NCBI GenBank assembly: GCA_934277945.1
Contig: CAKQWA010000002.1
Location: 162,410-226,409, forward strand
DNA: 64,000 bases
DNA from: an uncultured Alphaproteobacteria bacterium
GTDB taxonomy: Bacteria > Pseudomonadota > Alphaproteobacteria > CAAGCB01 > CAG-977
Reading direction: 5' to 3'
Positions 16,876-34,600 of the stretch are shown here, in pieces. The notes below the pieces were generated by a model that was given only the letters and a program-made list of their open reading frames with translations, made no database searches and had not been told where the DNA came from. Every line of letters begins with the position of its first letter. Position 1 is the first letter of the stretch. Made by a program: the position numbers and the translations under genes.

Positions 16876-19800
16876 TTAAAACAGTTCGGGAATCCCCTCG
16901 TCCTCCGCCGCCGCGGGCGCTTTCGCCGCCGCCTGAGCCGCCGCTTTCGCCGCCGCGTTCTTTGCGTTCGTCTGCTGCGGCGTTTTCGGCGTTTCAAGCG
17001 TCGTTTGCGGCGCTTGCTGTTGCTGGTTCGGCATATTCGGATTGTAGCCGTAATACGCGTTCGCCGGCATTTGCGACGGGGACTGCTCGACTTCGGCGCC
17101 GCTTGTCAGTTTCTGGGAGGAAGCGTCGATTTCACGCTGTTTCTGCTCTCTCAATTCCTGTTCGCGCTTGTCGATCAGTTTTGTCGTCTTTTCGCTCTGA
17201 TAATTCATGTCGTCTTCTTCGTCTTCCGTTTCCGTGCGCAACCACAAATCCTGATTGGCAAAAACGGTGATGCGCGTTCCCGACGGCACGAAAGAGCCGG
17301 ACGAAATCTGTTGCAGTTCGGAGAAGATCGCGTCGAAAATCTCCTGCATTTTGTCGGAGAAGTTGGAACGCGCGTCGTCCAAAGCCTGCTGTTTGCCGGT
17401 CGTCGTCGTCGTCGTACTGCCACCGGAAGCCGTTTCGACGGTCGTGCCGCCGTCCGCCATCATCCACAAAGCCGCGGATTCGACGACCGTTTCCAAAAGC
17501 GGCAGACCGAAGCGTTTCAGCAACTGCAAGTCCAAATAAGCGGGGATGCCGCCGCGTCCCTGCGCGTCGCCCGAAGATCCTTCCGGTTCGAACACGAATC
17601 CGACGCCGTCCGGACGAATCAAACGCGTCCACACGATAGCGATTTTCGACGCCGCCATCGGTCCCGCGCCGCTCTTGCCATCGCCGCCGGAGCCGATTTT
17701 CCCGATCAGGCGGCTGCCCGCCGGAATCAGAATGTTTCTGCCCGTTTCGGAATAAACGTTTCTTTCAACCACGGCGGAAACCGGCACGTTCGTATAGCGC
17801 GAATCAATGGAGCGCACCAAAACGGCGGGAATCGCCTTGTCCGCCAGAATCATGCGGCTCATGTCGACACGGTAGGAGGACGCGGTTTTCTTGATGCCCT
17901 GATCGCTCCAATCCTTGCTGACTTTCTGTTTGCGCCGGCGCTGTTTCTCGATATCGCTCTGCGACGCGCTTTGCAGTTGCCCCATGCTCATGGATTTGCG
18001 GCGCGCTTCCTGCATCGCCTGCAACTGCGCGATTCTTTGCGCGGAATAGCGTTCGCTGCGCCCCTGTCCGTAGCCTTTGATGCCGTACGCACCGCCGGAT
18101 TTGATGCCTTTACCGGCGGGAATTTCCGCCCCGCCCGTTCTTTTGGCTTCGCGCTCGGCATCGATTTTCGCCTGTTCCTCCGGCGACGTCTGCGTGCCGA
18201 TGATATTGCCGTCCGCGTCAATGATGTCGCCGTTTTCGTTGACGTAGCCGATGATGTTGCCGTTTTCGTCGACAACCGTGCCGTCGTCCAGAATGATGCC
18301 GAGTTTTTTACCCGTTTTAGAATAGGCGTATTTCGGTTTCGCCGCGTCGTTCGCGGGCGTAAAAACGCCGTCGTCCCAAGAACCGATGACGTTGCCGTTG
18401 ATGTCGACAATCTGACCGTCGGCGTTAATTCTGCCGATTTCCACGCCGTTCAGATTGACGACGCGGCCGTCGGGCAAAATCAGTCCGATGATGTTGCCGT
18501 CGGCGTCGCGCAACGGTTCGCCCTCCATGACCGACCCGATGACGTTGCCGTTCATGTCGACGACCGTGCCGTCGGGCAAAACTCTGCCGATGATGTTCCC
18601 TTCGTTGTCGCGCACATAGCCGTCCGCGCCGACAATGCCCAAGAACTCGCCGTTTCTGCCGATTGCCATTTTCACGGTTTCGTTGCCGGAAACGGCGGAC
18701 ACCTGACCGATGACGTTGCCGTCCAAATCGACGACCGTGCCGTCTTCCAGCACGCGCCCGATGATGTTGCCGTTCTCATCGCGCACAAAGCCGTCTTCGC
18801 CGACCGTGCCGATGACTTTGCCGTCGGGTCCCAAAACCTGCCTGCCGACAAATTTTTCGCTTGCGCCGACCTGCCCCAGAATGTTGCCGTCCATATCGAC
18901 GACCGTGCCGTCGTCCAGCACTCTGCCGATGACGTTTCCGTTCGCGTCGCGCACCAGACCGTCCGCGCCGACCGTGCCCAAAAGCGTGCCGTCAGGACCG
19001 TACACCTTGCGTCCCTCGAACGTCGCCTGAACTTTGCCGATGGGATTGCCGTTCATATCAACGACCGTTCCGTCCGGCAGAACTCTGCCGATGACATTCC
19101 CGTTCGCGTCGCGCACCAAGCCGTCCGCGCCGACCGTGCCCAAAAGTTTGCCGTCGGGTCCGTACACCTTGCGTCCCTCGAACGACGGCGCGACCTTGCC
19201 GATCGTTTTGCCGTTCATGTCGACGACCGTGCCGTCGGGCAGAACCCTGCCGATGACGTTCCCGTTCGCGTCGCGCACCAAACCGTCCGCGCCGACCGTG
19301 CCCAAAAGTTTGCCGTCGGGTCCGAACACCTGTCTGCCCGCGTAAGAGGGCGCCGCCTTGCCGATGACGTTGCCGTTCAAATCGACGACCGTGCCGTCGG
19401 GCAAAACTCTGCCGATGACGTTGCCGTTCGCGTCGCGCACCAAGCCGTCTTCGCCGATCGTGCCCAGCACTTCGCCGTTCGGTCCCAGAACCTGCTGATT
19501 GGCGAACAGGGAAGCCGGCACGCCGTCTTTCGTGTTCATCATGGAAATCCAGCACAAGTCCGTTCCGTCCTCTTTCACCGCCTTGCCGTTCGCCAGCAGT
19601 TTGCCCAGCACTTCGGAAGCCGTGTTGACGATTGAACCGTCATAATGCACCTTACCGACGGCGACGCCTTTCATTTTACATTCTTCGCCGATAGGCACGA
19701 CGCGCCCCAAGAATTTCTTGTCCGGCGTCAGCGTGCGCATTTCGGACGTGACGTAGCCCAAATCCTTGCCTTTGACGTTAACCACGCGTCCGTAGGGAGT

Positions 19801-22800
19801 CACCGTGCCGACCACGTCGCCCTTTTTGGAAATGACCAGTCTGCCGAAAGGCACTTCCACACCGATTTCCTGTCCGCTTTTGTAAACGGCTTTGCTTTGC
19901 TCGTTGACGACGCCCAGCGCGAAGCCCGTCACGGGATGCACGACGTAGCGGTTGCCGAACACGCGCCCGAGAACACGCCCGTGTCTGTCAACCAGATAAC
20001 GCCACCCCGCCGCCGCGCCGATGATGTTCTTTTCGGCGTCCAGCACCATGCCGTCCTGCGTGAAGCATCCGAGCGGATTGCCCTGATAGTCGATCACTTC
20101 GCCGTCGCCGACCGTGCGTCCGAACGACGAGCCGTCAAACGTGACGACCACGCCTTTCTGCACCAGTCTGCCGAGATTTTTGCCGCGTTTGTCGCGCACG
20201 ACGCCGTCGAAATCGACGCATCCGATTTCATCCATGCGCCCGTTCAGCACGCGCCCCTCGGCGTTCAGATTGCCGACGACCTCGCATTGAGAGCCGACCA
20301 CCGCGCGCGGTGAAACGACCAGACCGATCAAAGAGCCGTCGTTGTCGATCACGCCGCGGTCGTACGTCATGCGGGCGATGTTTTTGCCGTTTTTGAACAC
20401 TTCGCCCGTATCCATGCTCAACACGCCCGCGTCCATGTTGCAGGACGGCGCCAGAACGTACGGATCCATCACGCCGTAGCCGATGACGGCGTTCATTTTG
20501 TCCGTGACCGTTTCGTCGGGCAGGAACTTGCCGACCGTGCCGCGCTGTTGATGCACGACGTCGCCGCGCATGGAAATGCGTCCCAAAAAGTCGTTGGACG
20601 GCGTTAAAGCCAAGCCCGAAGACGATTTGAAGCCGACGACCTGACGTTCCGCGTCCGTCTGCATTTTGCCGATAATTTTGCCGTTGAAGTCGGCGACCGT
20701 GCCGTCCGTCCAGACGCGCCCGATGATTTTGCCTTTGAAATCGCGCACCAGAGCGTCGCGTCCGACAACGCCGAGCGGCTTGCCGTCGAAATCGACCGCC
20801 TGTCTGTTGATGTACTGCGCGGGCGGGTCGATTTGCCCGATGATTTTATCCTTGTCGTCCTCAACCGTGCCGTTGGGCAGAACTTCGCCCAAAACGGCGT
20901 TTTGACGGTCGACGACGTTGTTGTCGTTGTCAACGCGCCCGATGATGTTGCCCGTTTCGTCGTAAGCGCGCAGGGAAACGCGCCCGATGACGCGCCCGTT
21001 CAAATCAAGCACCGTGCCGTCGCGAATGACGCGCCCGATGATTTTGCCGGAGGAATCGCGCACCAGACCGTCGGCAAACACGACACCCAGCACCGTATCG
21101 CCCTGTTGCGAATACACGTCGTGATCCACGAAATTCGCGGGGGCTTCCAACTGCCCGAACACCTTGTTCGCGGAATCGTTGACCAAGCCGTCGGAATCCG
21201 CCGTGCCGACGATTTTGCCATCGTCGGAAACGACTTTGCTGTTTTCGTCCGTCTTGCCGATGAACGTGCCGAAAGAATCGTACGCTTTCGTTCCCACGGC
21301 GGGTTTGACGGAAAGCACTTTTTTGCCCTGCGCGTACTGCCCGATGACTTTTCCGGAAGCGTCCAGCACTTCGCCGGTCGCGGACACATAGCCGATGATG
21401 TTGCCGTTCGCGTCCATAATCGGTTCGCCGACGGCGACGATTTCGCCGATTTCGCGTCCCTCTTTGTCGAAAACGCGGTTGGACATATCGGCGTAACCGA
21501 TGATGTTGCCGTTCAAATCGACGACCGTGCCGTCCGGCAGAGCCGTCCCGATGACTTCGCCGTTTTTGCCGATGACCTGACGCACGCCCATGAACACGCG
21601 CCCGACCGTCGCGCCGTTTTTATCGACGACGCGTCCGTCCGGCAACTGCAAATTGCCCAGAAATTCGGATTTCTTGTCCAGAGCGATCCCCTCCGGCAGA
21701 ATACGCCCGATAATCGCCATGGAAGCGTCGAAAACAGGCACGCCCGCGGGAATGACGCCCGCGATTTTAACGTGTTCCGCGTCTTCAATGTAGCCGGTGC
21801 TGACGACGCGTCCCAAACGCTTGTCGCCGCCCAAAGTCAACGCTTCGCCGCGTTCGTTGCCGCGCCCGAACAGAACGCTGTCCTGATTAAGAGCCAAACC
21901 GGTGGAAAGAGGCGTCCCCAAAAACGCGGGCTTGCGCCCCAGCATACTGATCAGACCGTCCGCGCGCAGACAGCCGACGGGCTTGCCCTCCTCGTCGATC
22001 AGTTCGCCCTTGTAGTTCGTATAGCCCAGATACTCGTTCCGGTTGCCCAAAACGCTGCCGCCCTTGACAACACGTCCGATAAACTTGTCCTTATCGTTGA
22101 AAACGGCGTTATTATCCTGAATGTAGCCCAAACGCTCCATGCGCGAATTGACGATGCGCCCGTCGGGAATGATTCTGCCCAGCGGCAGACACGGCATCTG
22201 CATCGCGTAAGCGTCGCGCGGCACGACGCGCCCGACTTTCGAGCCCGAAGCGTCAACGACGACACCGTCGGAGAACACGCGCCCCAAAACCGCGCCTTTG
22301 ATATCCGTCGCCATCGCGTCGGGAGCGACAAAACCGACGGAACGCCCTTTGGCGTTGATGACGCTGTAATTCGGCAACAGTCCGCCCAGCACGACGTTTG
22401 TGGAATCAATGGCGAGGCGCGACGGATCCATACAGCCGATGACCATGCCTTTCTTATTGACGACCTTGCCGCTTTCGTTGGCGAAGCCTTCCACTTCCCC
22501 CGATGAACCGACGACAATCGGCGTATACGGTATCGCGCCGGTCACCATGCCGTCTGCCCCGAAAACATCTCCCGAAGAACTCAACGAACCTTCCACCTGA
22601 CTTGTCGAAACGGAAACGATCTTGCCTTCCGAGTCAAGATACCCCAAGACTTCACAGCCGGCTCTGACGGCAACGGGAACATCGTCGTTCACCCAAGCGC
22701 CCGTCACCTGCCCCGTCGACGACAGAAAAGCACCGTCGGGCTGAATGCGCCCTTTCAGTTCTCCGCCCGAAACAACCGCGCCGTCCGGCATAATCCGTCC

Positions 22801-24411
22801 GATAAACGCGCCCCGCCGTCCGACGACAACCCCTTTGGGACGGACGCTGGCGATAATTTCCATATCAGAGTTTAAAACGGTGGATTGCGGGGTCAGGCAC
22901 CCCAGCGGATCGCCTTTGTGATTGATCGGCGTGCCGTCCGTGTCAATGCGCCCGATGATGTTGCCGTCCCAGTCCAGCAGCGGACCTTCCTGCACCAAAG
23001 AGCCGACCGGATTGCCGTTCAAATCCAGAATGACGCGCGTGGAGGTCATGTGACCGACAAGTTTGTTGTCTTTCAGCACGGAGCCGTCCGTGCTGACGCG
23101 CCCGAGAACGCGGCATCCGGATCCGACGGCGATACCGGTTTGCACCGTGCGGCTGATGATGTTTTTATTGCTGTCAATAATCAGACCGCCGGGCAGAGCC
23201 TTGCCGATGACCGTGCCGTCTTCGTTGACGACGCGGCCGTCCGGCAGAACGACGCCGAGCGAACGCCCCATGCCGTCCACGACGCCCCCTTGCGGCACCA
23301 GCGTGCCGAGAGGCTTGCCTTCCAAATCGACAACCGTGCCGTCGGGGTTCAAATAGCCTATCAGATTTCCCGTTTCATCGACGACGCGGCCGTCCGGCAG
23401 AACTTTGCCGATGACGTTGCCCTTTTTGTCGTACACGTTGCCCGCCGCAATCGCCGAGCCGATGACGTTGCCGTTCAAATCCACGATCGTGCCGTCGCGC
23501 AACGCCCTGCCGATGACGTTGCCGTGCGAATCAACGACGCGCCCGTCGGGCAGAACCGTGCCGATGACTTCGCCGTTCGGTCCCAAGGCGATTTTCTGCC
23601 CCTCGACGACGCCGATGATGTAACCGTCCGCGTCCACAACGGTGTTGTCGGGCTGAACCATGCCGATTTTCTTGCCGTCCAGACCGATGGCGACGCCGTT
23701 TTCGTCGGCGTACCCGATCGGTTTGCCGTCCAGACCGAGAATCAAGCGTCCCTTGTCCTGCAAATTTTCAATCATCGTGCGTTTTTCGCCCGACGGACTT
23801 TCCACGTTGTCGCAAACGCCGCACATACTTGTGTCGATTGCGGTCGCGGAAACGGGAATGACGACTTTTTTACCGATGATGCCGAAAGTTTCGTCGCGCC
23901 AGCGCACCGCCAGATTGTTTTGAATGGAGCGCGCCTGCTTGGGCTCCCAGCGCACGACGACGTTGCAAACCGCGTCGCCGGTCAAGATTTCGTTCGCCTT
24001 GCACTTGTTTTCCAGCGTAAAGCCGTCTTTCTGGACTTCTTCAAAATCGACGGAAATGATGCTGACCTTGCCCGACGAACTGGACAGCGAAACGGTCGCT
24101 TCCGCCTCGGTGTTCAGCACGACCTGATCGAAACGGATCGCTTCGGGGGTCGCCACGACGCGCACCGTCGTTTTTTCAGGCATGTTGATTTGCAACTGGT
24201 CGACGCCGGTTCCCGTCACGCCGGACGACGCGTCAACACCGTCGCCGACGGTTAGCTTTGCGTCCTCCTTGACCGTTTCGACGCCGCCCATCAGAATAAC
24301 CAACCCGATCAGAAACGCGAACAACGCTCCCAATCCGACGAACAGAATCGTCCGGTTTGTCTTTTTCAAATATGTTTCAGACGAGCTGAGATATTCTTCT
24401 TCGTCAGACAT
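16876..24411 (-). CDS. virB10: Giant VirB10/TrbI-family T4SS protein (2511 aa) with a huge internal tandem-repeat array; CagY/DotG-like architecture
   Basis: Short cytoplasmic N-terminus plus one TM ('ILFVGLGALFAFLIGLVILMGG'). The C-terminal region 'VPVSAVVERNVYSETGRNILIPAGSRLIGKIG...IAIVWTRLIRPDGVGFVFEPEGSSGDAQGRGGIPAYLDLQLLKRFG' matches the VirB10/TrbI barrel domain. About aa 225-2075 consists of ~17-aa 'LPDGTVVDLNGNVIGKV'-type repeats. A Q/A/K-rich tail follows. Confidence 0.8.
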   Translation of the reverse strand: MSDEEEYLSSSETYLKKTNRTILFVGLGALFAFLIGLVILMGGVETVKEDAKLTVGDGVDASSGVTGTGVDQLQINMPEKTTVRVVATPEAIRFDQVVLNTEAEATVSLSSSSGKVSIISVDFEEVQKDGFTLENKCKANEILTGDAVCNVVVRWEPKQARSIQNNLAVRWRDETFGIIGKKVVIPVSATAIDTSMCGVCDNVESPSGEKRTMIENLQDKGRLILGLDGKPIGYADENGVAIGLDGKKIGMVQPDNTVVDADGYIIGVVEGQKIALGPNGEVIGTVLPDGRVVDSHGNVIGRALRDGTIVDLNGNVIGSAIAAGNVYDKKGNVIGKVLPDGRVVDETGNLIGYLNPDGTVVDLEGKPLGTLVPQGGVVDGMGRSLGVVLPDGRVVNEDGTVIGKALPGGLIIDSNKNIISRTVQTGIAVGSGCRVLGRVSTDGSVLKDNKLVGHMTSTRVILDLNGNPVGSLVQEGPLLDWDGNIIGRIDTDGTPINHKGDPLGCLTPQSTVLNSDMEIIASVRPKGVVVGRRGAFIGRIMPDGAVVSGGELKGRIQPDGAFLSSTGQVTGAWVNDDVPVAVRAGCEVLGYLDSEGKIVSVSTSQVEGSLSSSGDVFGADGMVTGAIPYTPIVVGSSGEVEGFANESGKVVNKKGMVIGCMDPSRLAIDSTNVVLGGLLPNYSVINAKGRSVGFVAPDAMATDIKGAVLGRVFSDGVVVDASGSKVGRVVPRDAYAMQMPCLPLGRIIPDGRIVNSRMERLGYIQDNNAVFNDKDKFIGRVVKGGSVLGNRNEYLGYTNYKGELIDEEGKPVGCLRADGLISMLGRKPAFLGTPLSTGLALNQDSVLFGRGNERGEALTLGGDKRLGRVVSTGYIEDAEHVKIAGVIPAGVPVFDASMAIIGRILPEGIALDKKSEFLGNLQLPDGRVVDKNGATVGRVFMGVRQVIGKNGEVIGTALPDGTVVDLNGNIIGYADMSNRVFDKEGREIGEIVAVGEPIMDANGNIIGYVSATGEVLDASGKVIGQYAQGKKVLSVKPAVGTKAYDSFGTFIGKTDENSKVVSDDGKIVGTADSDGLVNDSANKVFGQLEAPANFVDHDVYSQQGDTVLGVVFADGLVRDSSGKIIGRVIRDGTVLDLNGRVIGRVSLRAYDETGNIIGRVDNDNNVVDRQNAVLGEVLPNGTVEDDKDKIIGQIDPPAQYINRQAVDFDGKPLGVVGRDALVRDFKGKIIGRVWTDGTVADFNGKIIGKMQTDAERQVVGFKSSSGLALTPSNDFLGRISMRGDVVHQQRGTVGKFLPDETVTDKMNAVIGYGVMDPYVLAPSCNMDAGVLSMDTGEVFKNGKNIARMTYDRGVIDNDGSLIGLVVSPRAVVGSQCEVVGNLNAEGRVLNGRMDEIGCVDFDGVVRDKRGKNLGRLVQKGVVVTFDGSSFGRTVGDGEVIDYQGNPLGCFTQDGMVLDAEKNIIGAAAGWRYLVDRHGRVLGRVFGNRYVVHPVTGFALGVVNEQSKAVYKSGQEIGVEVPFGRLVISKKGDVVGTVTPYGRVVNVKGKDLGYVTSEMRTLTPDKKFLGRVVPIGEECKMKGVAVGKVHYDGSIVNTASEVLGKLLANGKAVKEDGTDLCWISMMNTKDGVPASLFANQQVLGPNGEVLGTIGEDGLVRDANGNVIGRVLPDGTVVDLNGNVIGKAAPSYAGRQVFGPDGKLLGTVGADGLVRDANGNVIGRVLPDGTVVDMNGKTIGKVAPSFEGRKVYGPDGKLLGTVGADGLVRDANGNVIGRVLPDGTVVDMNGNPIGKVQATFEGRKVYGPDGTLLGTVGADGLVRDANGNVIGRVLDDGTVVDMDGNILGQVGASEKFVGRQVLGPDGKVIGTVGEDGFVRDENGNIIGRVLEDGTVVDLDGNVIGQVSAVSGNETVKMAIGRNGEFLGIVGADGYVRDNEGNIIGRVLPDGTVVDMNGNVIGSVMEGEPLRDADGNIIGLILPDGRVVNLNGVEIGRINADGQIVDINGNVIGSWDDGVFTPANDAAKPKYAYSKTGKKLGIILDDGTVVDENGNIIGYVNENGDIIDADGNIIGTQTSPEEQAKIDAEREAKRTGGAEIPAGKGIKSGGAYGIKGYGQGRSERYSAQRIAQLQAMQEARRKSMSMGQLQSASQSDIEKQRRRKQKVSKDWSDQGIKKTASSYRVDMSRMILADKAIPAVLVRSIDSRYTNVPVSAVVERNVYSETGRNILIPAGSRLIGKIGSGGDGKSGAGPMAASKIAIVWTRLIRPDGVGFVFEPEGSSGDAQGRGGIPAYLDLQLLKRFGLPLLETVVESAALWMMADGGTTVETASGGSTTTTTTGKQQALDDARSNFSDKMQEIFDAIFSELQQISSGSFVPSGTRITVFANQDLWLRTETEDEEDDMNYQSEKTTKLIDKREQELREQKQREIDASSQKLTSGAEVEQSPSQMPANAYYGYNPNMPNQQQQAPQTTLETPKTPQQTNAKNAAAKAAAQAAAKAPAAAEDEGIPELF
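18190..23740 (-). repeat. Coding tandem-repeat array inside virB10
   Basis: The array is roughly 17-aa DGxVVDxxGNVIG units, on the order of 100 copies. They are grouped into 54-aa super-repeats. A sub-region near 18.75-19.5 kb holds near-identical 162-bp DNA copies. Confidence 0.7.
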
Positions 24412-24415
24412 GGTG

Positions 24416-25954
24416 TCATTGTGTCCTTATCACCGTGCAGGCGACGCCGCGGCGTCCCAACTGCGAACATAACGAGTTGCCCTCTTTCAGACTTTCGACG
24501 GGTCCGATGCGCAAACGGAACAGATCCTTGCCGTCGCCGTCCGCCGAAGCGTCAATCGAATAGAACGGCGTGAATTTGCCCAGCAAATCCTTGTTCTTGC
24601 GGGAAATGTTGCCCCACAAGCGTTCCAAATTCGCAATTTCGGCGTCGCTGCCGAATTCGACGGAAATCTTTTCGGGCAGGTTCTTCGCCGCCGGACGCTT
24701 GACATAGCCGTCCGACACCCCTGCACAGCCGGCGCAATTCATTTGAGCCAAGCCCGCCATCGCCTGCGCCGCCGTCATCGGCGCGCCGCTTGTCATCGTG
24801 TTCTTGATTGTCGCGCCGCCCGTCATGTTCAGCCCCGACGTTTTCGGATTGATCGGCGCGGGGACGTATTCGGGCTGGACGGCGGGATCGTAACTGACCC
24901 ATTCCGTGCCGAAAGCGGGATCTTTGCGGATGCGCAGGCAGACAATCCGCTTGCCGTTGCGCAAAACCATGTCGCCAACGCCCTCGACCACAATCAAGCG
25001 GCTGTGCGGTCCCCGAGTTCTGAAACCGACGGGAACTTCGGAGCCCTGCACCAAAAGGTTGACAATCGGACGTTGCAACATGCTCAACGCCTTGGGTCCC
25101 AAGTCGATATAGGTGAAAATTTCGTCGCGCCACACGCGTTCGGGGGCGATTTCAATGTCGTCGGGGTTCGGAATGAACACGTCGATGTCGAAACGCAGTT
25201 TTTCCGGATCGACGGGAATATCGTCAAGCCAGCCGTCGCCGGCGGGATTCGTTTTCGTCGTTCCGCCCTTGCCGACGGCGGAAGAACCGCCTTTGCCGTT
25301 GCGGGAAACGCCGCCGCCCGCGCCTTTCGCCACCGTTCCCGCCGCCATGGGCGTCGTGCCGGAAGCGTCGGGCGTGTAATTCGCGTCGTTGACGACGATG
25401 TCGACGACCGCGTTCGTGATGCGGTCGGTGTTAAACGTTTCGCTTCTTAAATAAAAGACGTATCTGTTGCCCGACCGTCCCATGACGACCATGTTGCTGT
25501 CCACGCCGACGAAGCCGGAGGAGGCTTCCGCGTAAACCAGCAGGGCGTTCGGCGCGGCGAACGTCGTTGAAAAAGCGACCTGATCGCCGACCCAGACCGT
25601 GTCCAGCAATTCCCAAGACGGAAAATTGATCAGCGTGACCATGCCTTCGCGAATGCGCAGCGGCAGAACCAGATCCGGCGTCCATTGATAGCGCGAATAT
25701 CCCGGTTTCGTCTGCCCCTCGCCCAGATGCTCCATCGGCTTGTTCCACGCCTTTTGCTGCATCCCCCAAGACGACAGATGACTGATGTCCATTTCGGAAT
25801 ACTGCCCGTTCGACTGTTCGATTGCGGCGTCCATTGATTCGTAAGAGGACGGGGCGGCTTGCGCGAAAGAGCGCGACGGCAGGCAGGACAGCCCGAAAAC
25901 CGTTGCGGCGAGAATGGATTTTTGAATAAATGTTTTCACGGCAGCACCTATCAT
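24416..25954 (-). CDS. virB9: VirB9/CagX/TrbG-family T4SS outer-membrane core protein with a C-terminal SPOR (peptidoglycan-binding) domain
   Basis: Signal peptide, then a VirB9 N-domain ('RIREGMVTLINFPSWELLDTVWVGD...NRYVFYLRS'). After a Gly-rich linker comes a VirB9 C-domain ('EIFTYIDLG...LRNGKRIVCLRIRK'). The last ~80 aa, 'ISVEFGSDAEIANLERLW...DLFRLRIGPVESLKEGNSLCSQLGRRGVACTVI', is SPOR-like. The start overlaps the virB8b stop by 1 nt. Confidence 0.7.
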   Translation of the reverse strand: MIGAAVKTFIQKSILAATVFGLSCLPSRSFAQAAPSSYESMDAAIEQSNGQYSEMDISHLSSWGMQQKAWNKPMEHLGEGQTKPGYSRYQWTPDLVLPLRIREGMVTLINFPSWELLDTVWVGDQVAFSTTFAAPNALLVYAEASSGFVGVDSNMVVMGRSGNRYVFYLRSETFNTDRITNAVVDIVVNDANYTPDASGTTPMAAGTVAKGAGGGVSRNGKGGSSAVGKGGTTKTNPAGDGWLDDIPVDPEKLRFDIDVFIPNPDDIEIAPERVWRDEIFTYIDLGPKALSMLQRPIVNLLVQGSEVPVGFRTRGPHSRLIVVEGVGDMVLRNGKRIVCLRIRKDPAFGTEWVSYDPAVQPEYVPAPINPKTSGLNMTGGATIKNTMTSGAPMTAAQAMAGLAQMNCAGCAGVSDGYVKRPAAKNLPEKISVEFGSDAEIANLERLWGNISRKNKDLLGKFTPFYSIDASADGDGKDLFRLRIGPVESLKEGNSLCSQLGRRGVACTVIRTQ

Positions 25955-26670
25955 CAGTCGGTTACGCTTTCAATGGAATATCCGTCGACGGAAAAGCCGA
26001 GCGGATTTTTCAAACGGTTGACATATTTCACTTCGTTTTTGGCGAAGTACCGTACCATGACCTGCACTTTCCAGCGGGACAAAGCGGGTTCTTCGGCTTC
26101 GGGAAGCATATCGCGCGTTTGCAGATACACCACCCACAAATTTTGCTGGCGCACGACGGATTCGATACGCACTTCGCGGGTCAGCCCGTCGATTTTGATG
26201 CGTTCCAGCCAATCGCGCAGAGTTTTGTTGAATTCGTTGTAAACGCGGTCGGACGACATCCAGCGGATCGGACCGTCGACGCCCCAGCGGAACGACATTT
26301 CGTCGATATCGGCGACCATGGTGTTGCGCAACAGGACGTACTGGCGGATCAACGCTTCGGTAATGATGTCGGAAGCCGCCAGATTCGCGCTGAGCGGCTG
26401 GACGCGCACGACCTGTTCGTCGCGGCTTTGGAACGTCAGCAGATACGGCTCGACGCGCTTTAACGGCAGCAAATTCCCTATGGCGAGCATTAAAACGATG
26501 TTCGCGCTCAAAGCCACGCCCGACACAATGGCGAAAGCGCGCGCCGTCCACAAATAGCGGCGTTCGCGCAACGCGTCGACGGACACTTCGGAAATTTCGG
26601 GCGTCGGAATTTTCGCCTTCGCCTTTCCGGAAGCGTTGTTTTTCTGTGCGGGAGCGGCGGGTCTAGCCAT
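25954..26670 (-). CDS. virB8: VirB8-family T4SS inner-membrane protein, paralog b
   Basis: Bitopic protein with a cytoplasmic N-terminus, the TM 'AFAIVSGVALSANIVLMLAI', and a periplasmic NTF2-like domain ending with the VirB8 hallmark 'NPLGFSVDGYSI'. Confidence 0.7.
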   Translation of the reverse strand: MARPAAPAQKNNASGKAKAKIPTPEISEVSVDALRERRYLWTARAFAIVSGVALSANIVLMLAIGNLLPLKRVEPYLLTFQSRDEQVVRVQPLSANLAASDIITEALIRQYVLLRNTMVADIDEMSFRWGVDGPIRWMSSDRVYNEFNKTLRDWLERIKIDGLTREVRIESVVRQQNLWVVYLQTRDMLPEAEEPALSRWKVQVMVRYFAKNEVKYVNRLKNPLGFSVDGYSIESVTD

Positions 26671-26935: not shown

Positions 26936-27640
26936 CTATTTTTTCTGCTTGGCGACGTTATATTGCATCACCGTGAAGCCCATCGGGTTTTTCAAACGGC
27001 GCGCCATGATGGCGTTAAAGGCGAAATAGCGGAATTGAATGGTGGCGATCCAGCTGGTGACAACCGGTTCGACCGCGCCTTCTTTCAGTTCGCGGGTGTC
27101 GAAAAACACCTGCCAGTTGTTCCAGCCGTCCTTGATAATGCGCTTCATGTCGACTTCGACGGTCTGTTCAATGGCTTTTTTGCCGTCGACGATGTCCTCG
27201 ACGTAGCGTGTGGCGAATTTTTCGTACACGGACGGAATGGACAGCGAAGCGATAACCCCGCCGTAGCCCCAGTTGACTTTCATTTCGCGCAGATTCTGCA
27301 CGACGGAGTGGCGAACGGACACATATTGACGCACATACATTTCCGCCAGCGTGTCCATTTTGGGCGCGTCGGCGTGAAGCGGCTCGAAATAAGCGAGATT
27401 TTCGGAAAAAGTCGGCGACGTGACGACGAACGTGTTCGCCTCCGCCTCGCCCGCCAGATGCAGCAGCATCAGGGACAAAAGCGCGGAGGTCGCCGTAAAG
27501 AAAAAGCACAAAGCGCCGAAAATGCGCGATATCCACATAAACTGCGTGGCGCGGTTTTCGGCAATGGCTTCCGCGCGGCGTTTTGCGGCGTTAATGGCGG
27601 CGTTTTGAGCCTTTTTAAGTTGCGTATAATTTTTTTCCAT
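26936..27640 (-). CDS. virB8: VirB8-family T4SS inner-membrane protein, paralog a
   Basis: 234 aa with the TM 'IFGALCFFFTATSALLSLMLLHL' and a periplasmic domain ending 'NPMGFTVMQYNV', the NPxGF VirB8 motif. It is the first gene of the cluster. Confidence 0.7.
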   Translation of the reverse strand: MEKNYTQLKKAQNAAINAAKRRAEAIAENRATQFMWISRIFGALCFFFTATSALLSLMLLHLAGEAEANTFVVTSPTFSENLAYFEPLHADAPKMDTLAEMYVRQYVSVRHSVVQNLREMKVNWGYGGVIASLSIPSVYEKFATRYVEDIVDGKKAIEQTVEVDMKRIIKDGWNNWQVFFDTRELKEGAVEPVVTSWIATIQFRYFAFNAIMARRLKNPMGFTVMQYNVAKQKK

Positions 27641-27680: not shown

Positions 27681-28388
27681 TTACGCGCCGGAAACGAACT
27701 TTTCCAAAGAGACCGCAAGCGCGGCGAACGCTTCGCCGTCAATGCAGTGCCCCATGCCGTTCACGGCGTGGAACGAAACGTCGCATCCGGCGGATTTCAG
27801 GAAACTCCGCGTCAGTTCGCAGGCGGGATACGGCACGACGGGGTCGGCGGTGCCGTGAATCAGCGCGACGGGCGGGGTCGAGCGCACGCTTTCCCTGTCG
27901 AACAGCGGGGGACAAAACACCGGACAGCAGGCGGACATACCGATAATGCCCGCCGCTTGCTCTTTTGCAAGCAATCCGGTCAATATGGCAAGCAAACCGC
28001 CCTGCGAAAAGCCCGCCAGCACGATTTTCGACATCGGCAGGGAACACGCTTTTGCGATTTGAGCGACGTAATCCGCCGTCAGTTCCGCCGCCTTCAACGC
28101 GTCGGGCATCAGTTCAAAAAAGATGTCGCGCGGATTGCGCCCCGCTTCGACGTCCTCGAAAAAATGCGGCAAATCGAACCACGCGCGCATATTGACGAAA
28201 GCGGGCGTGTTCGGCACGTCTTCGGGCGCGTCGGGAAAGAAAAAGGCGGTGTCGGGGACTGCGCGCGCCAAATACGGCGCCAATTCCGCCAAATCCGAAC
28301 CGTTCGAGCCGTATCCGTGAAAGAACACGGCGGCGGATGACGGATTTGCGGCGCCCTTGCGCACGGTTGTCAAAGAAAAAGCGGTCAT
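27681..28388 (-). CDS. Phospholipase/carboxylesterase-family alpha/beta hydrolase
   Basis: 235 aa with the nucleophile elbow 'GFSQGG' and His in a C-terminal 'GMGH' motif. It is co-oriented with virB8a and lies 40 bp upstream of it. Confidence 0.65.
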   Translation of the reverse strand: MTAFSLTTVRKGAANPSSAAVFFHGYGSNGSDLAELAPYLARAVPDTAFFFPDAPEDVPNTPAFVNMRAWFDLPHFFEDVEAGRNPRDIFFELMPDALKAAELTADYVAQIAKACSLPMSKIVLAGFSQGGLLAILTGLLAKEQAAGIIGMSACCPVFCPPLFDRESVRSTPPVALIHGTADPVVPYPACELTRSFLKSAGCDVSFHAVNGMGHCIDGEAFAALAVSLEKFVSGA

Positions 28389-28484
28389 AAAAATCCCCCT
28401 TGCGAACGAAAAAAGTTTACAAAACGGCGGTTTTGTTTTTTTATGGATTTAACGGATTTTATACTGAAAAAGGAGCGCGCTTCA

Positions 28485-29030
28485 ATGTTAATTGACAGAA
28501 ACGATTCAACTTTGCTGATTATCGACGTGCAAGAGCATCTGACGCCCGCGCTGAAAACGCCGCGCGATGTCATCACGGGGACGGAAAGACTGGCGAAAGG
28601 TGCGAAAATGCTGGGCGTTCCGGTCATTGCGACGGAGCAGTATCCCAAAGGGCTTGGTCCGACGATGTTCGACGTGCGTTCGGTTCTCGCGCCGGAAGAT
28701 TTCTTTGAAAAATGCGCGTTTTCGGTCTTGGCGCAGGACGGGTTCAAGGAACGTCTGGAAGCGCACGGCAAAAAGCAGGTGATTATCACGGGCGCGGAAA
28801 TGCACATCTGCGTTCTGCAAAGCGCGATCGCGTTAAAAGAAAGCGGCTATTTTCCGTTTGTGGTTGAAAACGCGTGTTCCAGCCGCTTCGACCGCGATTT
28901 TCTGGCGGCGAAAGACCGCCTGACGCAAGAGGGGATTCCGCTTGTAACGGTTGAAATGGTGCTGTTCGAGTGGTTGCGCACGTCAAAAGCGCCGGAATTC
29001 AAACAGGTGCAGTCGCAACTGGTTTATTAA
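28485..29030 (+). CDS. Isochorismatase-family cysteine hydrolase
   Basis: 'STLLIIDVQEHLTP' followed by a 'GAEMHICV' segment typical of the isochorismatase fold. The start was set at the internal 'MLIDRNDS'. Confidence 0.6.
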   Translation: MLIDRNDSTLLIIDVQEHLTPALKTPRDVITGTERLAKGAKMLGVPVIATEQYPKGLGPTMFDVRSVLAPEDFFEKCAFSVLAQDGFKERLEAHGKKQVIITGAEMHICVLQSAIALKESGYFPFVVENACSSRFDRDFLAAKDRLTQEGIPLVTVEMVLFEWLRTSKAPEFKQVQSQLVY

Positions 29031-29039
29031 GGGAAAGCG

Positions 29040-29735
29040 ATGTCGAAAAAGCAAGTCGTGCTGTTGCCCGCGCTGTTGTGCACGCCGGAAATTTTCATCA
29101 ATCAGATTCACGCGTTGCAGCCGCACGCGGACTTTCACACGCCGGACACGACGAAGCGCGCGGATATTGCGTCTTTGGCGAAAGACATTCTGGACGGCGC
29201 GCCGGAACGGTTCGCTCTGGCGGGGATTTCAATGGGCGGCTACGTCGCGTTCGAGATTCTGCGTCAAGCGCCGGAACGCGTGACGGATTTGATATTGATG
29301 GACACGTCCGCCCTGCCCGACGCGCCGGAAAAGCGCGCGAAACGGGCGCAGATTGTGGAATTGGCGAAAGCGCGGGGCATTGAAAGCGTCGTGCCCGCCG
29401 TTTTGCAAAGCCTGCTCGCCCCGCAGTATCGCGACTTGTCGCAGTTGGGGCGTTTCATGACGTTCATGGCGCAGACAATCGGCGTTCAGGGGTTCGCCAA
29501 TCAGCAAAGCGTCATCGCCTCGCGTCCTGATTCGACGGATTTGCTGGGACAAATCGACATTCCGACAACGGTGGTCGGCGGCGCGTGCGACGAAGTGACA
29601 CCGATTGACAAAATGCGCGAACTGGCGGCGCAAATTCCGCACGCGCGCTTTGTATCCGTCGCGGACAGCGGGCATCTGCCGCCTTTGGAAAATCCGGCGG
29701 CGGTCACCCGCATCTTCCAAGACGCGTTACTTTGA
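29040..29735 (+). CDS. Alpha/beta-fold hydrolase
   Basis: 231 aa with 'GISMGGYVA' (GxSxG) and Asp/His residues in the C-terminal half. It starts 9 bp after the isochorismatase gene. Confidence 0.65.
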   Translation: MSKKQVVLLPALLCTPEIFINQIHALQPHADFHTPDTTKRADIASLAKDILDGAPERFALAGISMGGYVAFEILRQAPERVTDLILMDTSALPDAPEKRAKRAQIVELAKARGIESVVPAVLQSLLAPQYRDLSQLGRFMTFMAQTIGVQGFANQQSVIASRPDSTDLLGQIDIPTTVVGGACDEVTPIDKMRELAAQIPHARFVSVADSGHLPPLENPAAVTRIFQDALL

Positions 29736-30716
29736 TTTCCTGTTTTTCTCGCGGAAAGCCTTGATGCGCGCCTGCTGGCGTTCCTTGTAGAGTTGCTTTT
29801 TGGACTTCGGCGTGCCGTCGTCGTTGTACAGGCGGATGCCGTATTCGTCTTTCAAAGCGGACACGTCGTTGCCGGTGATTGAAGCGGACGGCGCGGACGC
29901 GGCGGGCGCGTTCTGGACGGCGGTTTCAGCCGCCTGATTGTTTTTCGCGCTCTGTTTCGCGTTTGACTTTTTAGCGTTTTTCGACGCGGGCTTTGTCTGT
30001 TTCGCCGTTTTGTCGTCTTTGACGGCGGCTTTCTTGCCGGCGGCGTTCTTCAAGTCTTTGGCGGGCTTCGCTTCTTTTTTCTGCGTATCGGCGGATTGAA
30101 CGGCGGACGCTTTTTTCATCTTGGTGACAGCCGCGCCGGAAACGCACTCCTTGCCGCTCCAATACGGCGTTTTGCGGTTGCAGATGTCGCATTTTTGGAA
30201 TTTGACGCACACAAGCGTGCCGTCGTCGTCAATGCCGGAAACGGCTTGATCGCCGGCGTCTTCACCCTCGACGGAAGCGTTCTGCGGCGCGGGCGCGGCG
30301 GATTTTTCAGAAGCCGCCTCCTCCTGCTTTTTCTGTTTTTCCTCGGCGGCTTTTTGCTTGGCAAGATCGGCTTCCTGCTGTTTGCGCAACTTGCGCAGGC
30401 GTTCGACTTCCTTGCGCGCTTCTTCTTGCTTGGCTTCAAATTCCTTGCGGTATTCGGTGTGCGATTTCACCGCCTGCCCGCCGCCCAAAACCCACGGTTG
30501 AGCGCGCCGGCGGGAGTGAATTCCCAGCATATCCTCGGCGGTGGTGTCGGTCGTGTCGTATCCGGCGCGGTCGTCATTTTGGATTTGTTCGGGCGTGTAG
30601 ACGGCATACGCGCCGCCGACGCCGGTCGGATCGCCGGAAGAACCCAAACGCTGTTGCGCGTGCGCGGGCAAGCCGGCGGCAATCAGCAAAGCGGAGAAAA
30701 GAAACCATTTTTTCAT
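29727..30716 (-). CDS. Secreted Lys/Ala/Glu-rich low-complexity protein with a CxxC...CxxC-like cysteine cluster
   Basis: Signal peptide 'MKKWFLFSALLIAAGLPAHA'. It has coiled-coil-like KQEEA repeats and the cluster 'CVKFQKCDICNRKTPYWSGKEC'. It is the third gene of the cluster that follows the 2141-aa protein. Confidence 0.45.
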   Translation of the reverse strand: MKKWFLFSALLIAAGLPAHAQQRLGSSGDPTGVGGAYAVYTPEQIQNDDRAGYDTTDTTAEDMLGIHSRRRAQPWVLGGGQAVKSHTEYRKEFEAKQEEARKEVERLRKLRKQQEADLAKQKAAEEKQKKQEEAASEKSAAPAPQNASVEGEDAGDQAVSGIDDDGTLVCVKFQKCDICNRKTPYWSGKECVSGAAVTKMKKASAVQSADTQKKEAKPAKDLKNAAGKKAAVKDDKTAKQTKPASKNAKKSNAKQSAKNNQAAETAVQNAPAASAPSASITGNDVSALKDEYGIRLYNDDGTPKSKKQLYKERQQARIKAFREKNRKSK

Positions 30717-30728
30717 GACAAATCTCCT

Positions 30729-31559
30729 TTACAAACAGGATCTGTAACGCACGACGCAGGACGCGCCCTTGTATTTCAGCAATTCGACGGCGACCATGTA
30801 CTTTTCAAGCGAGGTGACGCCCTCTTGCGCGCGAATGAAGTTGACGACGCCTTTGGGCAGGAAAACGGCGTTTTTGTCGTCGATGCCCTTGGCGTAAATG
30901 CGGTAGACGGTGGAAGCCTGATCTTCGCCGCCGGAAAATTCGGTGAACGTGCCGTCGTCGTTTCTGGTCATGCGCTTTAAGAAGCCCAAATGCTTGCTCC
31001 CCGGTTCGCGCAAATCGACGGCTTGGAACAGATAGTGCATACTTTTGGTGGCGTAGCGGTAGGGCACGCGCCCGTAAGTGACGACCATGGCGACGGTGTC
31101 GTTGTTGTCGGCGGACAGACTGCACTCGGCGTTGTCGACGGCGGCGGTCAGCACGGGCTCGTCGATTGTCCCGCGCACGCAGAAGTACGCGCTGGTGAAG
31201 CCGTCCGCCATTTTAAGATATTTGTAGGCGTTGATGTGATATCTGCCGCCCTCCGCCAGTTCGGAATTTCCGGCGACTTTGCCGTTCGCGCCGACGGTGA
31301 AGATGATTCCGGAATCGGCGGGGTATTTGGGTTTTGCCTCGCCGACAATGACGGAGGACGCACCCTGCTTTATGGCTTTGTCGTAAACGGTCAGTTTTTT
31401 GGTCGCGTATTCCGCCGCCATTTTGTTTTGTTGCAGCATGGACGACACCATGGCTTCGTACACGGGGACGACGTAATCGTCGGGAGCCTTGGCGACTTCG
31501 CCGAATTTCCCCCATGCGAGCATGGAAATCAAGCTGGCTAAAACGACCCAAAAAAACAT
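30729..31559 (-). CDS. Hypothetical protein with an N-terminal hydrophobic anchor or signal
   Basis: 276 aa with the N-terminus 'MFFWVVLASLISMLAWGKFGEVA'. It lies 56 bp downstream of the giant TadE-like gene. Confidence 0.45.
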   Translation of the reverse strand: MFFWVVLASLISMLAWGKFGEVAKAPDDYVVPVYEAMVSSMLQQNKMAAEYATKKLTVYDKAIKQGASSVIVGEAKPKYPADSGIIFTVGANGKVAGNSELAEGGRYHINAYKYLKMADGFTSAYFCVRGTIDEPVLTAAVDNAECSLSADNNDTVAMVVTYGRVPYRYATKSMHYLFQAVDLREPGSKHLGFLKRMTRNDDGTFTEFSGGEDQASTVYRIYAKGIDDKNAVFLPKGVVNFIRAQEGVTSLEKYMVAVELLKYKGASCVVRYRSCL

Positions 31560-31615: not shown

Positions 31616-34600
31616 TTATTTATGCTTCATGAGCAGATTCGGGTTGTCAACCGGTCTGACGCGCCGCTGTTCGTAATCCATGTACGCGTTCGGGAAGTTG
31701 AAGTTCTGCGGATCGAAGTAGCAGTAGGTGTGCACCAGCGCCTGCATCGAGCCGGAGAAAATGCCGCCCATGTTCCAGAAGTAATCCGGCGAAGTGGCGG
31801 ACGTTTTGACCTTGTTCGGCGTCACGGTGCCCATGGCGACCGCCCAACCGCACAAAGTTTTCCCGCCGTATGCACCGCAATCGTAACGGGTCGTATCGGT
31901 GCGCAACCTTGTATCCATTGTAATTTGCAGACAATTTGCCGGCGAGTTCGCGCACAGCGGCTTCGCGGCGACGGCGATGCGCGTCGCGGGCTGGTAGATG
32001 AACGGCACTTCCGTGCGGTAGTCCTGATGTCCGAAGTTCTGGAAACGCCGGCTTGTCTGAATGACGTCCGCCAGATACCTGTTCGGCTGATCGGGATCCG
32101 TATGCGCCTCCCAACCGTAAGTGGGGTCGCCCTCTTGCGAGTCGTCTTCTTCGACAATGGGCAGTTTGCTCAAATCGTTCACGACGTAAAATTCGCCGCC
32201 CGTCGTCGTCGGACCGATAGGAATGGTGCTTGCCGTCGAATTCGACCCCGCGTCGATGAAGATGACCTTGCCCACGTCGAACGCTGTCGGCGTGACGGTC
32301 ATAACGGGCAGATAACCGGCGGGGCAAATGCCTGCCAAATGGTCGTCAATCCCGACAACGCTGCTTCTGCTTGAAGAGTTATACGATGTAAAGCTCACAT
32401 ACATCCCCGGCGCCGGCACGACCCCCATGAACGGGTGGGTCAGACAGCCCGCGGACGACCCGCCGGAACAATGGTAATAATTGTTCGCGGCGTAGGACAC
32501 GAACATGGAACGCGGGTTGACGTTGTACGCCTTGTAGCCGCTTGCGTTCAGCGTGCAGTAGTTTTTGTACCCGAAGCGGTTCATCAGCGAGCAGTCGGTT
32601 TCCCACGCCTCCATGTAATAACTGTTGCGGCTGGCATAGTGGTACTTGTCCAACGTGGCGTTGTTCGTGTCCATATACCGAGCCGGCTCTTTCGCCAATC
32701 TGCCGCGCGGCACGACGAACGAGCAGTTTCCGGGGTTGGAGTTGTAGTAGTTGTAATAACCGTCTTTCCAACCGTCTTCTTTATACATATTTCTTGTCGT
32801 CGCATCGGTTGTGTCGCAGGGCCACGGACCTTTCGCGTATTGGTTGGTTAATGTGTAGATCGACTTCAACACATAGTTCGGCAGAATGTCGCTCAAATTC
32901 GCACCGCCGCGGCTGGTCAGCTTGATGTCGTTCATGACGGACACATACGCGGGGTCCAAACGGAAAGCGTCATAGATTTCCTTGGGTACGTTGGATGTAC
33001 TGCCGTATCTGAACATGGAGGAAGTCGGCTGATACGACTGACCGTCGCCCAGCGCATAACTGTCCCTGCGTCCCGTGGAATAGTTGTAACCGCCGGTTGC
33101 AGTGTCGTTGTCAATCTTTCGAACCTGACGGAACGTCTCGCTGCTGGTATAAGTGTAATATGTCGCATTGTTCCTCCAGTTTATCGTTTGATCCACAGTA
33201 TCGCCGAACTTGCGGGCTTCGTCCCTGTTGACTTCGATGTAGCCGTCCCTGATTTTCCAGTAGCGCGTATCCAAGTCGATGCCTGCCTGACCGTTTCCGG
33301 CAAGTTGCAATCTGCCGTACGACGTGGTTGCCGAACCGTTCCAAGAAGTGTTCGCGGGCTGGTGGACGATTGTCGAAAATTCGGCGATCGGCGGCGTGCC
33401 GTGCGTCGTGTCCGAGCCGTATTGCGACGTGATAATCAAACCGCCGATGATTTTGTTCTGCGCGCCCATGGTGTAGAAACGGGGATCCGCCCTTGTCGCG
33501 TACCTCGGTACGTCAGAACTTAAAGATACGGAGTTCACCAGCGTCGGATTCGGCATGAAATTTTGCGAAACGACGCTCGACTTATTCGGAAGTTTATAAA
33601 AACGCGTATCCGCGCTATTCGTTGAAATTCTGCCGAACGGCGCCCCGTTCAAACCCGAACCGACAGCGTTAATCTGCTCTCTTTGGGTTATAAAGCCGAA
33701 TCTGGCATTTTGCCAGCCTTGCGGCGAATTCGCCGTAAATGCAGTATCAAGCGTTTGTTCGCCCGTACCGACCACAACGCCGGCGGTCGCCCCCAACTTC
33801 AAGTTCATGCCGACGGCGGAAAAGTCGTTCCAAGCAGTACTGTCCGGAACGCGCACAATGTTGCCAAGCAAACCGGACGTGACGTGTATGCCCGAATCGC
33901 CGATCGCCATATAGTCTTGACGGTACGACACGTCGGAAAGCAACTGGCTCTGCGCAAATCTTCTCATTGACGTGCCGGGGGTTTGCGACACGGCAAGCGT
34001 CGTCAAATCGGACGTCGCCGTCAGCAAATTGAAAGTGTCGTAATGGATGCCGCCGGTGCTTCCCGCCGTCATGTTCAACGAAGCGCGCTCCGTCGTATAC
34101 TGTCCTGTCGCTTTGAAAAAGTCGGACGTGGCGCGGTGCTGGTTCTGCCATTCCTCAATGTTGCGGAACGGCGTGCGCGGGTCGAAAAGCACGCGTTCCG
34201 TGCGCAACGAGGAACGCAGTTGCGGCAAAGCGGTGTCCTGAACGCTCGCGTACGAGTCCATTTCCAGCGTCGACCCTTGCAACAGACCGGTGGAGCCGTA
34301 TTCGTCTTCACCCGTAATGTTTTCAGCCACGGCGACCGCCGACAAGTTCAGCGACGGAATGTAGGACAAATGATACCAAGAGTTGTATTGCGCATCCCGT
34401 TTATGATCCGAACGCGGTTGCGACAGCGAGTGCGACCGCAATTTCAACTGCGCCGCCTTTGTCAGCGATTTCCATACTTCGTTGTTGCGCGCGGCTTCCG
34501 AAACCTGTCCGCTTAAAATGTACCCTTTGTGCACGTCGGACGAAACGGCGGACAAAGTCGCCACAGGCGAAGCCGGTTGCATGGCGTCCTGATACGACGA

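Follow-up and report, generated by a model that had tools for sequence, protein, structure and literature searches.

Canonical VirB9 proteins of type IV secretion systems (T4SS), such as TraO, TrwF, and the Xanthomonas citri VirB9, share a signal peptide, an N-terminal domain (NTD) and a C-terminal domain (CTD) joined by a linker, a match to the Pfam family PF03524, and a gene located between virB8 and virB10. These proteins are about 255-295 amino acids (aa) long and end right after the CTD; the X. citri protein (Protein Data Bank (PDB) entry 6gyb) could be aligned to residue 254 of its 255 residues. In solved core complexes, VirB9 forms rings of about 14 copies. In the 64-kb stretch of DNA analyzed here (the window), from an uncultured gut alphaproteobacterium, we found a gene, hereafter called virB9-SPOR, that encodes a VirB9 homolog ending in a SPOR-like domain. 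Compared with its canonical counterparts, this protein also contains a spacer of ~82 aa ahead of this ~84-aa domain, a long Gly-rich insert, and a conserved motif preceding the NTD.

Known SPOR domains are found on divisome proteins or cell-wall enzymes, whereas the domain described here is carried by a subunit of a secretion system. RlpA is an example of an outer-membrane-anchored SPOR protein. The typical architecture of this family consists of an anchor followed by a low-complexity linker and, at the C-terminus, a SPOR domain (PMC6895207). The window domain resembles the SPOR domains of FtsN, DamX, DedD, RlpA, and CwlC in its fold, its C-terminal place after a low-complexity linker, its pair of Arg residues in strand 3, and its Cys residue in strand 4 (C312 in FtsN).

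Within type IV secretion, DotK comes closest as a precedent: this OmpA-like lipoprotein belongs to the Legionella Dot/Icm core, binds sacculi, and is required for the correct placement of the machine at the pole (PMC10266036). Both are components of the outer-membrane complex of a secretion system, and DotK is devoted to peptidoglycan binding. However, DotK is a separate lipoprotein of a type IVB system, with an OmpA-like fold that recognizes the peptide stem (meso-diaminopimelate), whereas the window tail would be a SPOR-type, glycan-directed fold that forms part of VirB9 itself, within a type IVA system. In its gene arrangement, the locus resembles islet C of the Rickettsiales vir homolog (rvh) system, in which a chromosomal virB8-virB8-virB9-virB10-virB11 set with a duplicated virB8 is found apart from virB2-virB6 (PMC2653234). 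The SPOR tail and a giant VirB10 were both seen in the window module.

The virB9-SPOR gene occupies exactly positions 24416-25954 of the window and runs without interruption from ATG to stop on the minus strand, which had not been given in the original prediction, while the plus-strand translation of the same interval contains stops throughout. The signal peptide, the two VirB9 domains with their Gly-rich linker, the spacer, and the C-terminal domain were all found where that prediction had placed them (Table 1), with a spacer of ~82 aa rather than ~100 aa. By inspection, the N-terminus, MIGAAVKTFIQKSILAATVFGLSCLPSRSFA followed by QA, shows a basic n-region, a hydrophobic core, and an AxA-type site. 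The two residues flanking the putative cleavage site, A31 and Q32, are conserved among homologs in the alignment of the close family (A1).

The assignment of the tail to the SPOR family, also proposed beforehand, relies on profiles and on a predicted fold. The whole protein matched Pfam SPOR (PF05036) with 24.4 bits over residues 435-510, above the cut-off of 21, and residues 420-512 alone reached 29.5 bits (E 9.8e-7), with residues 14-91 of this fragment aligned to positions 8-76 of the model. All 33 homologous C-termini tested matched SPOR at E <= 0.01, the best with an E-value of 6.6e-8. AlphaFold2 modeled the isolated domain with a mean predicted local distance difference test (pLDDT) of 87.5 and a predicted template modeling score of 0.73 in the topology beta-alpha-beta-beta-alpha-beta expected of SPOR, and the fold recurred with pLDDT >90 in a separate run on the full-length protein.

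The four best Foldseek matches of this model in the PDB were all SPOR domains (1x60, 6i09, 6i05, and 6ztg). Bacillus subtilis CwlC (1x60, E 7e-4) and the two Pseudomonas aeruginosa RlpA structures spanned template modeling (TM) scores, normalized to the target, of 0.72-0.77 and root-mean-square deviations (rmsd) of 2.3-2.9 Å; the RlpA entries, 6i09 (glycan-bound) and 6i05, gave 0.76-0.77 and 2.3-2.5 Å. Escherichia coli DedD (6ztg) was far weaker (TM 0.30, rmsd 6.9 Å), and the SPOR matches were followed by generic ferredoxin-like proteins at much lower TM scores. A search with the full-length model gave the same ranking, with SPOR matches only, and when the domain alignment was used as a profile against PDB sequences, CwlC was the sole relevant match (E 0.027). 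The C-terminal ~84 aa are thus assigned to the SPOR family by profile and by predicted fold. Neither a missing SPOR profile match nor an unrelated fold, which the original prediction had named as evidence against it, was observed.

The remainder of the protein matched Pfam CagX/VirB9 (PF03524) with 48.9 bits (cut-off 34.2), residues 87-340 being aligned to positions 4-195 of the 198 in the profile, so that both VirB9 halves were covered, and the same family was matched by all 45 more distant relatives examined. The NCBIfam equivalog of P-type conjugative transfer VirB9 (TIGR02781) scored 30 bits against a cut-off of 217.7. The product of virB9-SPOR is, to judge by these profile scores, a divergent VirB9 and not a P-type conjugation equivalog. 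When the close-family alignment was used in a PDB profile search, no solved VirB9 was recovered, and only spurious low-complexity matches to alpha-synuclein arose from the Gly-rich linker. A profile of broader relatives (A3) matched X. citri VirB9 (6gyb, E 1.7e-13) over its NTD and CTD stretches, as well as R388 TrwF (7o3j), the NTD (2ypw) and CTD (3jqo/2ofq) of pKM101 TraO, and CagX. The tie of the window protein to solved VirB9 structures would therefore be transitive, through the A3 relatives.

The motif ahead of the NTD, SSWGMQQKAWNKPMEHLGEGQTKPGY, is the most conserved stretch of the protein and falls outside the Pfam match. It persists in distant relatives, with the A3 consensus LGLxQxAWxxP...GxxQxxPGY.

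We searched 5.8 billion proteins and obtained 1707 relatives, among which the best 120 (356-631 aa) were used for counting. The domain motif F[RH]LR.G was present in 117 of these 120 homologs, the exceptions being one truncated entry (P0075) and two entries with a variant of the motif, and 119 contained two cysteines within their last 25 residues. From relatives found in 379 GTDB species-representative genomes, 80 loci were retrieved, and in all 80 the match either extended across the C-terminal domain or ran up to where the retrieved DNA stopped; residue 511 was reached in 78, the match ending before it in the two others (L009 and L025). The records bearing the fusion come almost entirely from uncultured Alphaproteobacteria of gut metagenomes (human, ruminant, horse, and rabbit), under names such as 'Acetobacter sp. 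CAG:977' or 'uncultured Rhodospirillaceae UMGS1574'. The window protein itself (P0001) was found in independent assemblies, on three contigs with 100% identity.

Mean pairwise identity, calculated over 38 homologs for each region (Table 1), dropped to 15% in the spacer and rose again to 59% in the SPOR-like domain, while the spacer varied in length from 77 to 220 aa. Such a pattern points to selection on a folded module borne by a tether that evolves freely, rather than to a mis-joined open reading frame (ORF). The invariance of E433, R482, C496, and C506 likewise indicates purifying selection on the domain.

As the original prediction had supposed, a SPOR domain is not a standard feature of VirB9: the solved VirB9 of X. 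citri ends right after its CTD, and in full-text literature searches, we found no paper in which SPOR was paired with VirB9, TrbG, CagX, or TraO. Papers combining 'type IV secretion', 'SPOR', and 'peptidoglycan' dealt with other topics, and none was found linking RF32 Alphaproteobacteria with T4SS. The VirB9-SPOR fusion is real, widespread, and apparently undescribed; peptidoglycan-binding modules on secretion machines are already a known theme.

The spread and the age of the domain within the VirB9 subfamily had escaped the original prediction. When 1.84 billion cluster representatives were searched exhaustively with a profile, 140 matches were obtained at E <= 1e-30, and the SPOR domain of the family was present in the closest ~30 of them. 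Many of the distant VirB9s also carry C-terminal extensions of 100-240 residues (for example, P0146, P0148, P0149, P0153, P0161, and P0174). At their ends, these distant tails share the helix-strand element and its two cysteines, A...C-x(5-12)-C, and they retain a GP[YF] motif at the site that corresponds to position 12 of the Pfam SPOR model; a profile-profile comparison (hhalign) of the window domain family with them gave a probability of 86% and an E-value of 5e-6.

One such protein is annotated TrbG/VirB9 in cultured Microvirga species. Its cluster (L081, GCA_025460875.1, 1545-15995) contains a complete virB2-virB11 set with virD4 and a UvrD-helicase gene, and its VirB10 is of normal size (588 aa). 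The relative P0146 likewise carries the tail in a similar conjugation-like cluster (L082), next to a normal-sized VirB10 of 565 aa. No soluble lytic transglycosylase (SLT)/VirB1 gene was annotated in these two conjugative-looking clusters. A link of the tail with the giant VirB10 encoded in the window was considered and rejected, given the 588- and 565-aa VirB10s that accompany the Microvirga and P0146 tails. The tail is thus old within an alphaproteobacterial VirB9 lineage and not tied to the giant VirB10, and the gut clade holds its version nearest to a textbook SPOR domain.

Taken together, these data suggest how the tail could work. In our preferred reading, virB9-SPOR encodes the VirB9 of the outer-membrane core complex in a chromosomal type IVA (VirB-type) system, the host being an uncultured, anaerobic alphaproteobacterium of the gut. 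The disordered spacer of this VirB9 (~82 aa, 77-220 in relatives) would carry a small, disulfide-stapled SPOR-family domain into the periplasm and, at ~80-220 residues, would span the distance from the outer membrane down to the sacculus. If the ring resembles known VirB9 rings, each of ~14 copies would suspend such a domain at peptidoglycan level, where multivalent, non-covalent binding of glycan strands may attach the core complex to the sacculus or determine its position there, as DotK does for Dot/Icm. We lean towards the tail being a non-enzymatic peptidoglycan tether or positioning device, and reasonably infer that the T4SS core would be tethered to the sacculus.

The residues of the putative glycan-binding site bear directly on this proposal. 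According to the crystal structure of the RlpA SPOR domain with glycan and to earlier mutagenesis, a highly conserved Gln of SPOR domains at Pfam position 8 (RlpA Q270, FtsN Q251, and DamX Q351) donates hydrogen bonds through its amide to the lactyl carboxylate of N-acetylmuramic acid (MurNAc) and to the N-acetyl group of N-acetylglucosamine; a frequent Phe at position 12 (RlpA F274, through a CH/pi contact) bounds the site; and a basic patch (R302, R309, and R311 of RlpA, R285 of FtsN) receives the MurNAc lactyl carboxylate, with many main-chain contacts besides (PMC6895207). The same work reports that the position-8 Gln is required for the septal localization of FtsN and DamX (PMC6895207); our literature search for Q251/Q351 point mutants returned nothing relevant. 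The RlpA and FtsN SPOR sequences were confirmed against the PDB, aligned with the window family, and compared with the residue patterns of the 38 homologs. Strand 3 (FRLRIGPV) retained the basic patch, Arg480 (Arg in 37 of 38) aligning with RlpA R309 and FtsN R285, and Arg482 (38 of 38) with RlpA R311. The strand-4 Cys of FtsN, C312, corresponds to Cys506 (38 of 38). Cys496, in helix 2, is also invariant, whereas the FtsN partner, C252, is located in strand 1, and a Cys496-Cys506 disulfide staple different from that of FtsN may thus be formed.

Several observations weigh against peptidoglycan tethering. The best-conserved SPOR determinant is replaced, since the residue aligned with RlpA Q270 and FtsN Q251 is Glu433 of strand 1 (ISVEFGS), a Glu in all 38 homologs and an Asp in the next relatives. 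The position-12 aromatic (RlpA F274) is also missing, being Asp437 in the window and D/N/G/S/H across the family. A carboxylate at position 8 cannot donate the hydrogen bonds described above and would repel the lactyl carboxylate. Moreover, the Pfam SPOR model matched none of the 45 distant VirB9 tails. Finally, the full-length AlphaFold2 model had a mean pLDDT of 48.6, and no confident model of the VirB9 part (pLDDT 30-57) was obtained, so that the level of the tail with respect to the peptidoglycan layer is putative.

Glu433 could pair internally with Arg480/Arg482, and ligand preference may be altered or the site partly self-occupied. With Glu in place of Gln, no position-12 aromatic, and the Arg pair kept, the ligand may differ from amidase-denuded glycan. 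The case for binding of denuded glycan, which had been assumed from SPOR membership, is weakened by the Gln-to-Glu433 and Phe-to-Asp437 replacements. These replacements lower our confidence in canonical denuded-glycan binding, but they do not affect membership of the SPOR family by Pfam profile and fold.

Other readings of the tail were weighed against that of a tether. It is possible, but rather unlikely, that the tail is a localization device and not a general mechanical anchor: classical SPOR binding to amidase-denuded septal glycan would lead to capture at midcell, inheritance at the new pole, and a polar T4SS. Besides the SPOR membership and fold of the domain, this would agree with the septal denuded glycan that all characterized SPOR domains are reported to target (PMC6895207) and with the reported marking of the new pole in Sinorhizobium by an FtsN-like SPOR protein together with AmiC (PMC7822825). 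The dependence of polar Dot/Icm placement on peptidoglycan binding by DotK (PMC10266036) points in the same direction. However, the residue most tied to septal localization (FtsN Q251, DamX Q351) is a Glu throughout the family, the position-12 Phe has disappeared, and no amidase gene was found within the conserved operon.

We consider it equally doubtful that the domain is a SPOR-derived fold repurposed for contacts with the giant VirB10, with VirB8, or with a putative VirB7, or for an extra periplasmic ring, and no longer binds peptidoglycan. Ring formation by oligomerization is known for the N0 domain of Xanthomonas VirB7 and for alpha/beta ring-building motifs in other secretion systems. 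The loss of the Gln and Phe glycan determinants in favor of an invariant acidic residue would fit such a change of use. The distant tails, homologous to the window domain, keep only the two-Cys helix-strand element and are not matched by Pfam SPOR, suggesting selection for something other than a canonical glycan site. Nevertheless, the best structural and profile matches of the domain are SPOR, not ring-building or N0 domains, and the Arg pair of the glycan site is retained. The long, hypervariable, and disordered spacer also suits a roaming tether better than a fixed ring, and the Microvirga tail, beside a VirB10 of normal size, shows no tie to the giant VirB10.

A more speculative reading, to which we assign a similarly low likelihood, would be that VirB9-attached SPOR-like domains form a distinct functional subclass. 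With its invariant acidic residue beside the Arg pair, the domain could be retuned to a peptidoglycan chemistry such as N-deacetylated or otherwise modified strands, or strand ends, and would dictate the site of the sacculus (new pole or remodeled zone) at which the T4SS with its giant VirB10 is assembled. If true, this would represent a built-in address label on a type IVA core complex, ancient in an alphaproteobacterial VirB9 lineage.

It is very improbable that the tail substitutes for a VirB1 lytic transglycosylase, as had been suggested, since a SPOR domain is a binding fold of ~75 aa without catalytic residues, the lytic activity of RlpA residing in a separate DPBB domain (PMC6895207). 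No SLT/VirB1-type domain was detected among the ORFs scanned in the window cluster, in locus L034, and in the Microvirga cluster, but a missing virB1 carries little weight, as the window lacks virB2-virB6 too. Lastly, the joining of a separate SPOR gene to virB9 by a frameshift or a misassembly can practically be dismissed: chimeric or frameshifted database entries are known in the family (P0222, P0133, and P0135), but the frame is continuous in the window and the architecture recurs in 117-119 of the 120 best homologs, in 80 independent genome loci, and in independent assemblies.

The tethering reading bears on how type IVA machines are attached and placed with respect to the cell wall, which is poorly defined. 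Dedicated peptidoglycan binders are known in type IVB systems (DotK), and others in type II and type VI secretion systems and in type IV pili (PMC10266036). A VirB9 with its own SPOR-type module would mean ~14 wall-binding tethers per machine, and the tail is a simple feature through which anchoring could be tested against septal or polar targeting. Microvirga-type clusters provide a cultivable system in which the tail could be tested, and the Gln-to-Glu change represents a natural variant for probing the ligand specificity of SPOR domains. The fusion is also a marker of a T4SS family that is large and unstudied, has a giant VirB10 with repeats and a duplicated VirB8, and is widespread in uncultured gut Alphaproteobacteria of humans and animals. 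For a specialist, the surprise may be moderate, as the fusion of a peptidoglycan-binding domain to a part of a secretion system is a familiar idea in general.

Table 1. Features of the virB9-SPOR gene and of its surroundings in the window. Identities are mean pairwise values.
Feature	Positions	Strand	Length or residues	Evidence and conservation
Complete virB9-SPOR ORF	24416..25954	-	512 aa	Stop at 24416-24418
Sec-type signal peptide	25862..25954	-	1-31	Sequence inspection; putative cleavage between SFA and QA
Conserved motif ahead of the NTD, SSWGMQQKAWNKPMEHLGEGQTKPGY	25697..25774	-	61-86	82% identity
VirB9 NTD	25385..25696	-	~87-190	Pfam CagX stretch and profile of relatives; 71% identity
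Gly/Ala/Thr-rich interdomain linker	25226..25384	-	~191-243	29% identity, many indels
VirB9 CTD	24917..25225	-	~244-346	Pfam CagX and profile of relatives; 76% identity
Low-complexity spacer	24671..24916	-	347-428	Hypervariable among homologs; pLDDT <50; 15% identity
Extra cysteine pair (CAGC) in the spacer	24719..24730	-	~409-412	
SPOR-like domain	24419..24670	-	429-512	Pfam PF05036, AlphaFold2 fold, alignment; 59% identity
virB8 paralog adjoining virB9	25954..26670	-	238 aa	Pfam VirB8, 71.7 bits; 78/80 loci
Second virB8 paralog	26936..27640	-	234 aa	Pfam VirB8, 52.2 bits; 76-78/80 loci
Giant virB10	16876..24411	-	2511 aa	TrbI/VirB10 domain at residues 2188-2391; 78/80 loci
virB11 ATPase	15879..16856	-	325 aa	TIGR02788, 144.5 bits, and Pfam T2SSE; 70/80 loci
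Alpha/beta-hydrolase	27681..28388	-		Abhydrolase_2 (phospholipase/carboxylesterase), 111.8 bits; 20/80 loci
Unannotated ORF	28385..28807			
Unannotated ORF	29727..30716			
Unannotated ORF	30729..31559			
Large ORF	31616..38041	-	2141 aa	

The virB9-SPOR gene belongs to a tight minus-strand operon, virB8-virB8-virB9-virB10-virB11, in which its ATG overlaps the stop codon of the upstream virB8 by 1 nucleotide (nt) and its 3' end lies 4 nt before the start of virB10. This order, with a giant virB10, was kept in 70-78 of the 80 loci. No virB2-virB6 gene (virB4 included) and no virD4 was found within the window, and neither virB7, virD4, nor a second virB9 was found adjoining the module. This separation is not universal, because in locus L034 (1-9000) a VirB4 gene lies ~8 kb upstream of virB8; five ORFs that match nothing in Pfam come after it. 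VirB4 was found within 10 kb in only four of the 80 loci, the region upstream of the conserved module being highly variable.

The two tandem virB8 paralogs upstream of virB9 are divergent from each other. In the giant VirB10, ~2100 residues of beta-flower (19 matches to Bflower_2), DUF3659, and RHS-like repeats precede the TrbI/VirB10 domain, and the protein reaches 2831 aa in L034. It recalls the CagY protein of Helicobacter pylori, but the repeats differ. In the spacer of the window VirB9, the Ala/Pro/Gly/Thr-rich sequence contains an extra pair of cysteines (…QMNCAGCAGV…) that is absent from the homologs in alignment A1.

The T4SS operon includes the alpha/beta-hydrolase gene directly upstream of the two virB8 paralogs; its product could be an effector or an accessory enzyme. 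A large ORF of 2141 aa, together with three unannotated ORFs (Table 1), is located between the T4SS module and an efflux operon. No Pfam match, no PDB sequence match, and no relative among the 80 loci were found for this large ORF, a candidate for a strain-specific surface protein or effector. Elsewhere, the window is ordinary chromosome and carries an anaerobic ribonucleotide reductase, genes for lipid A and Kdo, motAB, and an efflux set of the MacAB-TolC type.

Some database records of the family call for caution. P0222, considered as a different SPOR fusion, was rejected as a chimeric assembly in which an unrelated N-terminal part is followed by a tail matching the C-terminus of a family member, and P0133 and P0135 are frameshifted VirB9s. 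Four loci (L007, L027, L037, and L053) come from mislabeled bins, several records of the alphaproteobacterial locus being named Limosilactobacillus, Holdemanella, or Lactobacillales.

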